Origin: Escherichia phage vB_Eco_F27
Strand: one strand, 5' to 3'
Sequence record: OP870146.1
Length of the DNA stretch: 64,000 nt
The notes beneath the pieces are model-generated. The model ran no database searches. It was not told the origin of the DNA and saw nothing but the letters and a program-made list of their open reading frames with translations. A program made the translations under genes and the position numbers. How positions within the stretch are numbered: position 1 is the first letter of the stretch; the number at the start of each line of letters is the position of its first letter. Shown one piece after another: positions 54,374 through 61,073 of this stretch.

Positions 54374-55375
54374 TTATTTCAGTAAAGTTACTTCAGAGAT
54401 TTCCTCCCAACCATCTTTATCAGTTGAAATAAAATCTGCTACATAAAGAGCCGTACGTAATGATACATTGCGAAGACGAGATACGTTAGCCTTCATCCAG
54501 GACAATGCTTTATACGTTTCTGCATCCGTCAGACCACGTTTCTGCATCATGTCAGTAGATAATATTACATCTTCAACTCGAACCATAATCTCTTCATTAG
54601 AGTGTACTCCAAGGTCGAGATACACTGAACGAGATACTAAAGCTTGAAGGTGCGGAGCAAGTTTCGAACCGCGTTCTAACTCTTTATCGATATCAACGTT
54701 TGTAATGAAAACGATAGTACCTTCAAACTCAAATTCTTTATCAATACCCTTATCATCGAGATAAGATGACGCAGTGCTCCAACAAACTTTGCGTTTATCT
54801 CCGGTATCTAATGCTGCTTTAAGAAGGTTCAAGATGTCCATATCTGAGAATACATCAACGTCGTCGATTAAGAGAACGCTGTCTGCATCACGGTTGAGCC
54901 AAAGTTGTTCGTAAAGGCCAATACCAGAGATTTTACCATTAATGCTTTTGTATTTGATGAAACCATTATCATTAGCATTATTAAGTGCTTTATCCAGAGA
55001 ATACGTCTTACCAATACCGGCTGCACCTGAAATAATGAGTGAACGAATTTTGCCATCGATAATGCCATTCGTCATCATGTTCATTACTTTAAAGCGTTTG
55101 TTGATACGAGTTTTCATATCTTCAGTGCTTTCAACAACTGCAACTGGTGGTGTCTCAACTCCTTCCATTACGATGTCTGATTTGAAGACCCATACTCCAC
55201 GTTCAGAACCATCAATCATAACGAAAATTTTACCATCACCTAAGTGGGAACATTCAGGATTAAGCTTTGCCGGGAACCATGTCTTTGTGGCAACATAAGA
55301 ACCAGAGATTTCGTTATTACGATAGATACCTTTTTTGATTTGAACGTTGAACATTTTATTCTCCAATTTACTCAT
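54374..55375 (-). CDS. P-loop NTPase (AAA-type)
   Basis: Walker A ISGAAGIGKTYS, Walker B VLLIDDVD. Confidence 0.6.
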   Translation of the reverse strand: MSKLENKMFNVQIKKGIYRNNEISGSYVATKTWFPAKLNPECSHLGDGKIFVMIDGSERGVWVFKSDIVMEGVETPPVAVVESTEDMKTRINKRFKVMNMMTNGIIDGKIRSLIISGAAGIGKTYSLDKALNNANDNGFIKYKSINGKISGIGLYEQLWLNRDADSVLLIDDVDVFSDMDILNLLKAALDTGDKRKVCWSTASSYLDDKGIDKEFEFEGTIVFITNVDIDKELERGSKLAPHLQALVSRSVYLDLGVHSNEEIMVRVEDVILSTDMMQKRGLTDAETYKALSWMKANVSRLRNVSLRTALYVADFISTDKDGWEEISEVTLLK

Positions 55376-55750: not shown

Positions 55751-56032
55751 TTACTTATCGCACTTAGCAACATAATTAGGCATATCACAGAATACGGAGC
55801 GAGTAACTACTCGGCCCTTTGACCATGCTTCAGTTGCTTGTCCGGCCGTGCTATTAATATAGCTTGATTTGATATTCTCAATACCCTGAGAATGTGATGC
55901 ATTTACCGAACCATTAGAAGGCCCAGAAGACTGGTTACCACCAGCTCCTGCACTACCGCTAGCTGCACCTGTGGTAGCGCCAACAGAGAATGCCATCATT
56001 ACTGCGAATAAACCAATTACTAATTTTTTCAT
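55751..56032 (-). CDS. secreted Ser/Gly-rich protein
   Basis: Signal peptide MKKLVIGLFAVMMAFSVGA; followed by terminator. Confidence 0.5.
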   Translation of the reverse strand: MKKLVIGLFAVMMAFSVGATTGAASGSAGAGGNQSSGPSNGSVNASHSQGIENIKSSYINSTAGQATEAWSKGRVVTRSVFCDMPNYVAKCDK

Positions 56033-56063: not shown

Positions 56064-57053
56064 TTATTTATAGTAAGAATTATGATTTTCGAGATAGACT
56101 TGTTCAAGGAAGTCATCCCAGAAACTCATATCTACTTTTTGTTGCATACCGTTCTTAGTGGCTTGTTCCGATGCTTGTTCAACTTGGTCAACGATATCTT
56201 CTAGGAATTCTTGTACAGTTTTAAACGTATGTTTACCAAGCTTAACATCGAGAATAAATGGAGCATCCTGAAGTGGGTAAACCAGGTCGCCGGTTTTGTA
56301 AATTTCCAATAGTTGAAGTCCACCACGACATGCATGACTCAATGCTTTCCAGTCAATACCTTCGTTGGCTTCTGCCTTACGAGCACGTTCACCATAGTTC
56401 TCTTCCAGTTTAACCAGGATGGCATTGAACTCTTTATTGGTTAACGTGTCTTGGAATTTACGGTCTAACAGATTATAGAATGTTTGCTTACCTGTTTTCT
56501 CGTTTTCGGTTTCAACCCACGAAGCAAATTCACCTACAGGCAGAACATTCTTCATATGTGATAAACGAATTACTGCACCATTATCAAAGTATTGTCCCCA
56601 TTCATTAGAACGTTTAAGGGCTTGACGAAGAACAGCCAGTCGAGAACCCTTGACACCGTATTTAGAAGCTTGCTTACGGACATACCCTAAATAAGATTTC
56701 ATGTTAGTAGTATAGAAACGAGACCTGTTGTCTTGAATATACTTCCACACGTCAGGCAAATCAGATTTAACTACTAGACTTGGTGGAGTGTGAAGCATAT
56801 CTAATGCGACGGTTTCACCATCCGCAGCTAGTTTAAAGAAATATTTGAGACTATACAACTCATGGTCCACGTCGTCTTTTGTGTTCTTAGAAGATGTGTT
56901 ATTCGTGTTCTTGCTCATGTGTTCTTTAACGTTACCGGTCAAGATATCACGAGCATGAGGGACATAAATTTCTTTAAAATCGACGTCAGATTCAGGAGTA
57001 GACGTTCCATAAAGGTGGCTACCAAAGTAGCCTTTCATAATTGTTTTCATCAT
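56064..57053 (-). CDS. putative nucleotidyltransferase (Pol-beta superfamily fold)
   Basis: GSHLYGTSTPESDVDF = [GS]-x9-D-x-D nucleotidyltransferase signature. Confidence 0.5.
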   Translation of the reverse strand: MMKTIMKGYFGSHLYGTSTPESDVDFKEIYVPHARDILTGNVKEHMSKNTNNTSSKNTKDDVDHELYSLKYFFKLAADGETVALDMLHTPPSLVVKSDLPDVWKYIQDNRSRFYTTNMKSYLGYVRKQASKYGVKGSRLAVLRQALKRSNEWGQYFDNGAVIRLSHMKNVLPVGEFASWVETENEKTGKQTFYNLLDRKFQDTLTNKEFNAILVKLEENYGERARKAEANEGIDWKALSHACRGGLQLLEIYKTGDLVYPLQDAPFILDVKLGKHTFKTVQEFLEDIVDQVEQASEQATKNGMQQKVDMSFWDDFLEQVYLENHNSYYK

Positions 57054-57523
57054 TTAGCCTTATATTCAAGAGTAGGACAGACTTTTTCTTTACGAGCTTT
57101 AAGGTATTCGCCTATTAATGATTTCTTACGTTCAATAGGCTCAAGTCCATTTTTAATTCGTTCTTGGTTTTGTGCAATGAGCTCAATTTCTTTATAATAT
57201 TTTCTGTCGTTATATTTGTCTAACAACCAAGACGGACCAATTACCAACCCGGTAGCAATAAAAGCCATGACTGCTACAATTAAAACGCCTACACCAATTG
57301 AGGCTGGAACTAATGTCCATAGACTGCTAAAAACAAAGAATTTAGTTAAAATTTCCTGGCCAATGATTGTGACTGCTGCTAAAATCGCAAATCCAATAAT
57401 TGAAACAGCTAATACCGGGATTAGCGTTTTCCAAAAATAAGCACACAACGTTTTCGGACGATTCCATGTACTATTGAACGCGGCATAAATTTTAAAGTGC
57501 CAAGAGTTTTCATTGATAATCAT
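57050..57523 (-). CDS. integral membrane protein
   Basis: Several hydrophobic helices. Confidence 0.5.
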   Translation of the reverse strand: MIINENSWHFKIYAAFNSTWNRPKTLCAYFWKTLIPVLAVSIIGFAILAAVTIIGQEILTKFFVFSSLWTLVPASIGVGVLIVAVMAFIATGLVIGPSWLLDKYNDRKYYKEIELIAQNQERIKNGLEPIERKKSLIGEYLKARKEKVCPTLEYKAK

Positions 57524-60391: not shown

Positions 60392-60594
60392 TATTCTTCT
60401 ACATGTTGTTTACGGCCTTTCTTATCAATAAAGGTATATTCAACGAATGTTCCGATGTAGTCTTTATCTACATCATGTGGACTATTAATTGGACATTTAG
60501 TACGACAAATGCGTTCCCATTGACGAATAATTACTGCCTTATTCTTTGGATCATATGGATGTGGATAATGTATATTCATAATAACGGTTCCCAA
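60367..60594 (-). CDS. hypothetical protein
   Basis: 75-aa ORF. Confidence 0.4.
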   Translation of the reverse strand: MGTVIMNIHYPHPYDPKNKAVIIRQWERICRTKCPINSPHDVDKDYIGTFVEYTFIDKKGRKQHVEEYCLKVTWL

Positions 60595-61073
60595 TCAACA
60601 ATCACAATTTCTAGTTTAGTGGAATACGTATCTAAAATCTCTTCGATGACATCCCAGTTTCCACCACCAATACCTGCACCAATTCTTGGCATATAAATTA
60701 CAGGCTTTGTTATCTTATTCTTTCCGAATTCATTTAATTCTATTATACAATTCATTAAAGCAGAGTACTCAAAATTAGGTCCCGGCTCAAACTGTGTATA
60801 AAGATTAAAGCAATAAGCTTTATGGGTCTTAAAATATTTTTCATAAACCGAATAAGTCCAGAGTTTAGACTTGTCTCCGAATTCGGTTTGAAGTTTATCG
60901 GCTTCCAGAATTTTTGGATAAGCCTTTGCTAATTGCCCTGCCACACCAGCGCCCATTGTATGAAAACAATTACACCCATGAGCAATATTATTACCTTTAG
61001 AAAACAGGGCGACAATATCGCCCTTGATATAGTTTTTAATCACTTGCTGCAAGTCCTCTATTATAAGAGTCAA
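60576..61073 (-). CDS. macro-domain protein (ADP-ribose binding / ADP-ribosyl hydrolase)
   Basis: HGCNCFHTMGAGVAGQLAKAYP and MPRIGAGIGGGNWDVIEEIL match macro-domain glycine-rich loops. Confidence 0.7.
   Translation of the reverse strand: MTLIIEDLQQVIKNYIKGDIVALFSKGNNIAHGCNCFHTMGAGVAGQLAKAYPKILEADKLQTEFGDKSKLWTYSVYEKYFKTHKAYCFNLYTQFEPGPNFEYSALMNCIIELNEFGKNKITKPVIYMPRIGAGIGGGNWDVIEEILDTYSTKLEIVIVDWEPLL

Follow-up and report, generated by a model that had tools for sequence, protein, structure and literature searches.

We analysed a 64,000-nucleotide stretch from Escherichia phage vB_Eco_F27 (sequence record OP870146.1; hereafter the window), concentrating on the open reading frame (ORF) at 56064..57053 on the minus strand, which a first-pass annotation made from the sequence alone had described as a Pol-beta-type nucleotidyltransferase (NTase) of unknown target. 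All features within the ORF that are given below are on the same strand. As read from the window sequence, the ORF starts with ATG and encodes 329 amino acids (aa). The gene is the ortholog of T4 nrdC.11, an ordinary, conserved and already known phage gene, and the window is a T4-like (Mosigvirus) genome. The DNA of the gene is 98-99% identical to that of many Escherichia and Shigella T4-like phages (601 phage records in a megablast search), with E. coli O157 typing phage 3, genus Mosigvirus, as the best named reference, and NCBI already has an entry for a 329-aa protein of identical sequence (P0001). T4 NrdC.11, labelled 'nucleotidyltransferase' in RefSeq, shows 78% identity to the ORF protein over the full length. 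The neighbouring genes in the window (thymidine kinase, rI antiholin, a y05I/MobD.1-like gene, a NrdC.10-like AAA ATPase and a Tk.4-like macro-domain protein) indicate that the ORF belongs to the early-strand block from tk to nrdC. T4 nrdC.11 lies in the same block, between tk and nrdC.10, and its product has identical catalytic and C-terminal motifs; it is 336 aa long compared with 329 aa for the ORF, with two indels at residues 150-175, and directly upstream T4 has the homing endonuclease gene mobD, whereas the window has a gene for a 157-aa membrane protein.

The first ATG of the ORF shares the sequence ATGA with the TGA stop codon of the upstream gene. A second in-frame ATG at 57050, three bases further on, would give a protein of 328 aa and is the start used in RefSeq. 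An AAGG Shine-Dalgarno-like sequence, inferred from the sequence at 57058..57061, precedes the first ATG by 4 nt and the ATG at 57050 by 7 nt, the latter being the better spacing.

Pfam PF10127 (RlaP, 'RNA repair pathway DNA polymerase beta family') matched with E=8e-13 and 49.1 bits against a cutoff of 23, the match spanning residues 7-137 only (profile positions 23-144 of 249), and the same family is listed in the precomputed Pfam field of the protein database for all close homologs. PHROG 388 ('nucleotidyltransferase') matched over the full length (E=3.6e-126). To judge from its sequence, the product is a catalytically intact member of the RlaP branch of the Pol-beta nucleotidyltransferases. 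A tblastn search found a homolog in 1,530 of 50,697 phage records, with at least 80% of the length covered in 1,450, and the hosts of these phages include Escherichia, Klebsiella, Aeromonas, Acinetobacter and Vibrio. Among 1.84 billion representatives, searched exhaustively, 3,236 clusters (50% identity) matched at E<=1e-3 and 744 at E<=1e-30.

The N-terminal Pol-beta NTase core covers approximately residues 1-98 (56760..57053), as delimited by hhalign and Pfam, and comprises in the predicted model strands 3-10, 24-31, 45-49 and 62-68, followed by helices. Within it, sequence and conservation locate the hG[GS]...DxD signature GSHLYGTSTPESDVDF at residues 11-26 (56976..57023), with G11, S12, D23 and D25. 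The spacing, G-S-x10-D-x-D, fits the classical Pol-beta NTase pattern hG[GS]x9-13Dh[DE]h, which Holm and Sander are said to have described in 1995. Conservation was assessed on an alignment of 144 full-length representatives with 33-52% identity to the ORF protein, drawn from the representative library; the first matches in the protein database were near-identical T4-like sequences. G11, S12, D23, D25, D61, D63 and D85 are at least 90% conserved in this alignment. Conservation, the model and hhalign together mark D61-V62-D63 (56865..56873) at the start of strand 62-68, and D63, which pairs in hhalign with the invariant D89 of canonical RlaP, is likely the third catalytic carboxylate. D85, in an ALDMLH helix (56799..56801) and at least 95% conserved, pairs with the invariant E111 of canonical RlaP.

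Further downstream, conservation defines a C-terminal subfamily signature YGERARKAEANEGIDWKALSHACR at residues 220-243 (56325..56396); its consensus, YGxRAxxAxxNxGxDWKAxSHAxR, is at least 90% conserved in the same 144 relatives. The seven N-terminal residues named above and the C-terminal block, including G221, R223, D234, W235, K236, H240 and R243, are present in 80 of 80 phage orthologs. In the 80 cellular homologs described below, the conserved residues of both regions are retained in 59-80 cases, the lowest value being that of S12, which is Ala in 19. The pattern is that of an active enzyme, with purifying selection acting on both domains.

The AlphaFold2 model of the ORF product, calculated with the 144-relative alignment, has high confidence (mean pLDDT 94.3, pTM 0.87). 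In it, an alpha/beta NTase core at the N-terminus is followed by a C-terminal domain that is largely helical, ends in two long helices (277-300 and 309-328) and holds a small predicted beta element of three strands (177-184, 188-195 and 198-201; residues 177-201, 56451..56525). This element is variable in sequence and length, and the T4 indels lie just upstream of it. Meaningful Foldseek matches in the PDB were all Pol-beta NTases, namely kanamycin NTase (best, E=2.5e-3), HalB and 3c18, and many phage 'nucleotidyltransferases' among the viral models of BFVD matched as well. Canonical-type RlaP models in BFVD aligned over about 300 columns, with TM-scores of 0.59 (target length) for PaBG and 0.46 for Eowyn. 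PDB searches at the sequence level, whether by the protein alone or by a profile of 145 sequences, returned chance-level matches only. The crystal structure of Pseudomonas fluorescens RlaP (PfRlaP) has an N-terminal NTase domain and a C-terminal helical domain, the last helix of which packs onto the NTase domain (10.64898/2025.12.29.696909). Because of this structure description, we suppose that the motif at residues 220-243 is probably part of the substrate cleft.

The assignment to the Pol-beta-type nucleotidyltransferases made in the first-pass annotation is therefore borne out by sequence, conservation and predicted fold: structure prediction and fold search both gave an NTase fold, and the catalytic Asp residues are kept in the homologs. 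The GS...DxD signature on which it relied is real, as PF10127, PHROG 388 and the conservation among the relatives agree. That annotation named no strand, gave the length of 329 aa correctly and let the ORF begin with the signature, which lies near the N-terminus and not at it. Its view that no homolog was obvious for the rest of the protein did not hold, given the number of phage records and clusters matched and the conserved C-terminal motif.

NrdC.11 and canonical RlaP, the latter represented by the enzymes of P. fluorescens and P. aeruginosa encoded in rtcB-rlaP-rtcA operons and by the phiKZ gp237 type, fall in the same Pfam family and share hG[GS], DxD, the third Asp and the further acidic residue (D85/E111). 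They also appear to be alike in the layout of an NTase domain plus a helical domain, as far as the predicted model shows, and both types occur in RNA-repair operons. However, the NrdC.11 type is larger (about 320 aa versus about 255-280 aa), and has an insertion at approximately residues 40-60, between strand 2 and the strand of the third Asp, the predicted beta element 177-201 and a C-terminal motif of its own. An hhalign comparison of the two types aligned the NTase core only (residues 6-94; E=7.9e-5, probability 61%).

To examine the genomic context in cells, we scanned one genome per prokaryotic species and characterized 80 loci (L084-L163) by neighbour clustering and Pfam scans. Full-length NrdC.11-type genes (33-52% identity) were found in Desulfobacterales, Nitrospirota, Alphaproteobacteria, some archaea and others. 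Pnkp (kinase-phosphatase-ligase) is near the NrdC.11-type gene in 9 of the 80 loci, directly upstream in about five of them, Hen1 in 7, RtcB in 9 and Ro60/TROVE in 4. T4-like PNK occurs in three loci (in L158 it is 4.6 kb off, beside Pnkp) and T4-like Rnl1 in one. Altogether, 18 of the 80 loci, and 12 of the 48 with at least 3 kb of flanking sequence on both sides, have at least one RNA-repair neighbour, the identity of these neighbours being confirmed by Pfam. We infer that this enrichment is very likely real, because the repair genes are rare and usually single-copy. The RNA-repair context of the cellular homologs points to RNA repair in preference to signalling roles. The clearest case of a side-by-side gene set for healing, filling and sealing is on a 4-kb contig of a metagenome-assembled genome assigned to Bathyarchaeota (L088:62-3803), where an NrdC.11-type NTase gene, a 130-aa ORF, a T4-like PNK, a 143-aa ORF and a T4-like Rnl1 follow each other closely on one strand. 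The PNK of this contig, which may be viral, has 37% identity to PseT and the Rnl1 27% identity to RnlA.

A second feature of the cellular loci is a tandem arrangement. In 22 loci a canonical full-length PF10127 RlaP gene (E=1e-81) lies directly 3' of the NrdC.11-type gene on the same strand, at a distance of 5-283 nt (for example L092:440-2186, L160:5472-9799, L137, L116 and L110); 20 of these 22 pairs belong to the 70 loci in which the downstream sequence extends for 1 kb or more. Both paralogs of the pairs retain the catalytic residues, and several pairs are inside Hen1-Pnkp or RtcB/Ro60 operons. This arrangement suggests two non-redundant RlaP paralogs that act together, and the pairing in cellular genomes implies that the NrdC.11 and canonical types are distinct paralogs and not interchangeable. 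The tandem pairing in bacterial repair operons is a useful lead for further work. In four alphaproteobacterial loci (L112:8974-9507, L131, L135 and L157), the direct neighbour of the NrdC.11-type gene is a gene for a small HD_4 (RelA/SpoT-type HD) phosphohydrolase and not one for canonical RlaP. Among phages, canonical RlaP was found in 81 records, mostly of phiKZ-like and other jumbo phages and none of them T4-like, from which it follows that T4-like phages carry only the NrdC.11 type.

The repair of tRNA by T4 PNK and Rnl1 is a textbook case of a phage reversing RNA damage inflicted by its host. RloC cuts tRNA and also excises a nucleotide, and its discoverers argued that such a lesion should defeat repair by PNK plus Rnl1 (PMC2610378, PMC3458546); that RloC-type nucleases defeat the T4 pathway by nucleotide removal was proposed in 2008. 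Orthologs of nrdC.11 were tied to the COG3541 nucleotidyltransferase domain in 2006 (PMC1524935). The name RlaP and the predicted role of the family are traced by citing papers to Burroughs and Aravind (2016). Iyer et al. (2021) noted that the distribution of RlaP in jumbo phages mirrors that of RNA ligases, and predicted that RlaP restores, before ligation, nucleotides lost to nucleases such as RloC (PMC7824862). A preprint of December 2025 has provided biochemical results for the enzymes of P. fluorescens and P. aeruginosa (10.64898/2025.12.29.696909). These RlaPs add 1-2 nucleoside monophosphates (NMPs) to an RNA 3'-OH, accept any nucleoside triphosphate (NTP) or dATP and prefer Mn2+, while neither DNA nor proteins (those of E. 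coli included) nor 3'-phosphate ends are used. In vitro they labelled bulk rRNA of E. coli as well as full-length tRNA; on a nicked tRNA mimic, the enzymes favoured the broken end in the anticodon loop over the acceptor 3' end, and pre-treatment with RlaP partly rescued the aminoacylation of repaired tRNA that lacked one nucleotide. The same preprint puts 'T4NrdC.11' in PF10127 as a member of cluster 5 of a sequence similarity network and calls its function unknown, the assayed enzymes being in cluster 1a. The fill-in hypothesis is one already held by Burroughs and Aravind in 2016 (according to the citing papers), Iyer et al. in 2021 and Carruthers et al. in 2025; the window adds no new kind of element to it, and our analysis adds supporting context for the NrdC.11-type subfamily.

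On balance, we think it probable that NrdC.11 is a template-independent RNA 3'-terminal nucleotidyltransferase which serves as the fill-in step between healing by PNK and sealing by Rnl1/Rnl2. In this scheme, a host anticodon nuclease would cut the tRNA and remove a nucleotide (wobble excision of the RloC type), PNK (PseT) would heal the tRNA ends, NrdC.11 would add 1-2 NMPs to the free RNA 3'-OH by a two-metal centre of D23, D25 and D63, replacing the lost nucleotide on the 5' half of the tRNA, and Rnl1 or Rnl2 would seal the filled tRNA. The family membership, the conserved and intact catalytic residues, the two-domain fold and the repair-gene context of the subfamily in cells are supported by the present data; NrdC.11 would most likely share the chemistry of the assayed enzymes, and in the proposed scheme it would use tRNA as substrate and cooperate with PNK and the Rnl ligases. 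The C-terminal domain likely sets the substrate specificity. If the scheme is right, the restoration of nucleotides by NrdC.11, which is conserved in about 1,500 sequenced T4-like genomes, would close a long-standing gap in the tRNA-cleavage arms race, and a function could be assigned to one of the many conserved T4 genes of unknown role. The role of nrdC.11 in infection would be worth testing. A more specific and tentative proposal, which we hold to be possible and still on the doubtful side, is that the NrdC.11 type is a functionally distinct RlaP paralog. In cells it would cooperate with the downstream canonical RlaP, for example if the two preferred different nucleotides or substrates or formed a heteromer; it would act alone in T4-like phages as the 'fill' enzyme, turning heal-and-seal into heal-fill-seal and reversing RloC-type damage that was thought to be repair-proof.

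Several observations weigh against the fill-in role. The chemistry is known from a different RlaP subfamily only and not from NrdC.11 itself, and only the N-terminal ~90 residues align to canonical RlaP, so that the substrate specificity could differ. The counts of repair neighbours in cells were made without a matched control, and some RtcB genes are several kb away or on the opposite strand. In the sample of 80 viral loci examined for the phage neighbourhood, PNK or RnlA was within 10 kb of the NrdC.11-type gene in only 5-6, mostly several kb off, which by a rough estimate is at or below chance for genomes of 170-230 kb, and no PNK or RNA-ligase homolog was found in the window. The lineage nevertheless has the partner enzymes, since RnlA, PNK and RnlB are encoded in the reference Mosigvirus and in T4, 55-85 kb from nrdC.11. 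Non-templated addition would restore the correct nucleotide only sometimes, a weakness that the authors of the biochemical study admit (10.64898/2025.12.29.696909). Finally, a viable genome-reduced T4 lost the fragment from nrdC.11 to mobD.3 (PMC9825161), so that the gene is dispensable on laboratory hosts; this fits a conditional counter-defence role and proves nothing.

The same enzymatic activity could instead be used for other work at RNA 3' ends, such as the repair or extension of the 3' CCA of tRNAs, including those encoded by phages, or the tailing of host or phage RNA to alter its stability. The lack of linkage between phage nrdC.11 and ligase or PNK genes is compatible with this, as are the chemistry of the RlaP family, which takes any RNA 3'-OH with little NTP specificity, and the labelling of bulk rRNA and full-length tRNA in vitro. 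CCA-adding enzymes and poly(A) polymerases (PF01743) are indeed also Pol-beta enzymes that add nucleotides to an RNA 3'-OH without a template. They differ, however, in their accessory domains, and the sequence that CCA enzymes add is a defined one; the assayed RlaPs attach 1-2 nt of any kind and, on a nicked tRNA mimic, preferred the broken end in the anticodon loop to the 3' end of the acceptor. Neither Pfam nor NCBIfam gave a PF01743 match at E<=1, and the cellular homologs are in ligase-containing operons (Pnkp/Hen1, RtcB) and not with CCA or tRNA-maturation genes. In addition, the CCA-adding enzyme of the host is needed by some T4 tRNAs, an argument against a counterpart encoded by the phage. 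We regard such a role as unlikely.

The first-pass annotation had suggested the nucleotidylation of a host factor or a role in nucleotide signals, and its term 'unknown target' holds narrowly, for NrdC.11 itself; the family is a named one, two bacterial members of which use RNA 3'-OH. Neither suggestion gained support from Pfam, NCBIfam or PADLOC models of CD-NTase/cGAS, MNT antitoxins or other signalling NTases, and the cellular contexts indicate RNA repair. CD-NTase families gave no Pfam match at E<=1 and were not among the top structural matches, and PADLOC gave no match at E<=0.1. Nucleotidylation of a protein or a small molecule, in the manner of MNT antitoxins that AMPylate HEPN toxins or of aminoglycoside NTases, would be in line with kanamycin nucleotidyltransferase ANT(4') (PDB 1kny) as the best structural match, an enzyme with a small-molecule acceptor that also has an NTase domain followed by a helical domain, with an MNT/HEPN complex far down the Foldseek list, and with a sub-threshold match to the MntA model NF047752 (12.9 bits against a cutoff of 60, E=0.077) that covers the GS..DxD motif only. 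Yet the TM-scores for such generic NTase-fold matches are low (0.3-0.4; 0.32-0.39 for ANT(4'), with 9% identity), and there is no family-level match. In contrast to the small single-domain MNT antitoxins, NrdC.11 has 329 aa and two domains. The two assayed RlaPs did not modify E. coli proteins, Pfam scans of the NrdC.11 neighbours gave no HEPN-family match, and the neighbourhoods contain RNA-repair genes, with no toxin partner emerging from the clustering of recurrent neighbouring ORFs or from probes limited to repair genes. We judge this role very improbable, and give even slightly less credence to a de novo polymerase of short oligonucleotides like HalB, possibly protein-primed, the products of which would be signals or decoys, for instance to hold the oligo-dA-gated Hailong system off. 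That idea is based on fold similarity to HalB (PDB 9dbh, 9dbj), with 16% identity and a match limited to the NTase core plus some helices. There is no link by sequence, even with the 145-sequence profile against the PDB, and the PADLOC scan gave nothing for the NTase or its neighbours apart from a chance-level SspF match for NrdC.10. HalB has 217 aa, primes itself on a tyrosine, makes a long oligo-dA product and is paired with the HalA channel, of which no conserved equivalent is found near NrdC.11; the assayed RlaPs, in contrast, need an RNA primer and add only 1-2 nt. Only the closer T4-like phages have a membrane-protein gene next to the NTase gene; neither distant phages nor any of the 80 cellular loci show this adjacency, and T4 has mobD where this gene sits. 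NrdC.11 thus shows neither sequence-level homology to HalB nor pairing with a HalA-type membrane effector.

As for the surroundings of the gene in phages, the adjacent gene at 57050-57523 (minus strand) encodes the predicted 157-aa membrane protein (PHROG 944), and its stop codon overlaps the NTase start. In 41 of the 80 viral loci, all of closer T4-like phages, a homolog is encoded 0-1.8 kb upstream of the NTase gene. A Hailong-like pair of NTase and membrane protein was considered here and rejected as inherited synteny, because only close T4-like phages have the two genes side by side, and neither T4 itself nor the cellular homologs do. Directly downstream of the NTase gene, the gene at 55751-56032 (minus strand) encodes a 93-aa Gly/Ser/Ala-rich protein with a signal-peptide-like N-terminus, a weak YbgS-like Pfam match and assignment to PHROG 2243; since a homolog was detectable in only one of these 80 loci, the gene is apparently variable and accessory. 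The NrdC.10 ortholog (54374-55375, minus strand; 333 aa), with a weak P-loop AAA/STAND-like match and a weak C-terminal HTH_37 match, is found downstream of the NTase gene in 35 of the 80. In distant phages, the NrdC.11-type gene has other recurrent neighbours, which look like NAD-salvage genes (NMN adenylyltransferase-like and NadV-like). The macro-domain protein encoded at 60576-61073 (minus strand; PF01661, PHROG 335 'phosphatase') is judged by its position to be the Tk.4 ortholog. Because macro domains act on derivatives of ADP-ribose, among them products of RNA 2'-phosphate removal, the gene is a possible further RNA/ADP-ribose-related accessory gene of the early block.

A scan for promoters and terminators was uninformative, since the counts were at the level of shuffled sequence (19 versus 19.6 sites and 4 versus 3.4, respectively). 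In RB49 (NC_005066.1), nrdC.11 matches in two pieces, with 67% of the protein covered. A deposited T4 genome of 159,752 bp (OL964745.1) has only the last 39 codons of nrdC.11 left, which indicates a deletion and is consistent with the dispensability of the gene. In many GenBank phage records, as well as in UniRef cluster names, the NrdC.11 NTase is annotated as 'thioredoxin', apparently because the nrdC prefix of the gene name was carried over, NrdC itself being a thioredoxin.

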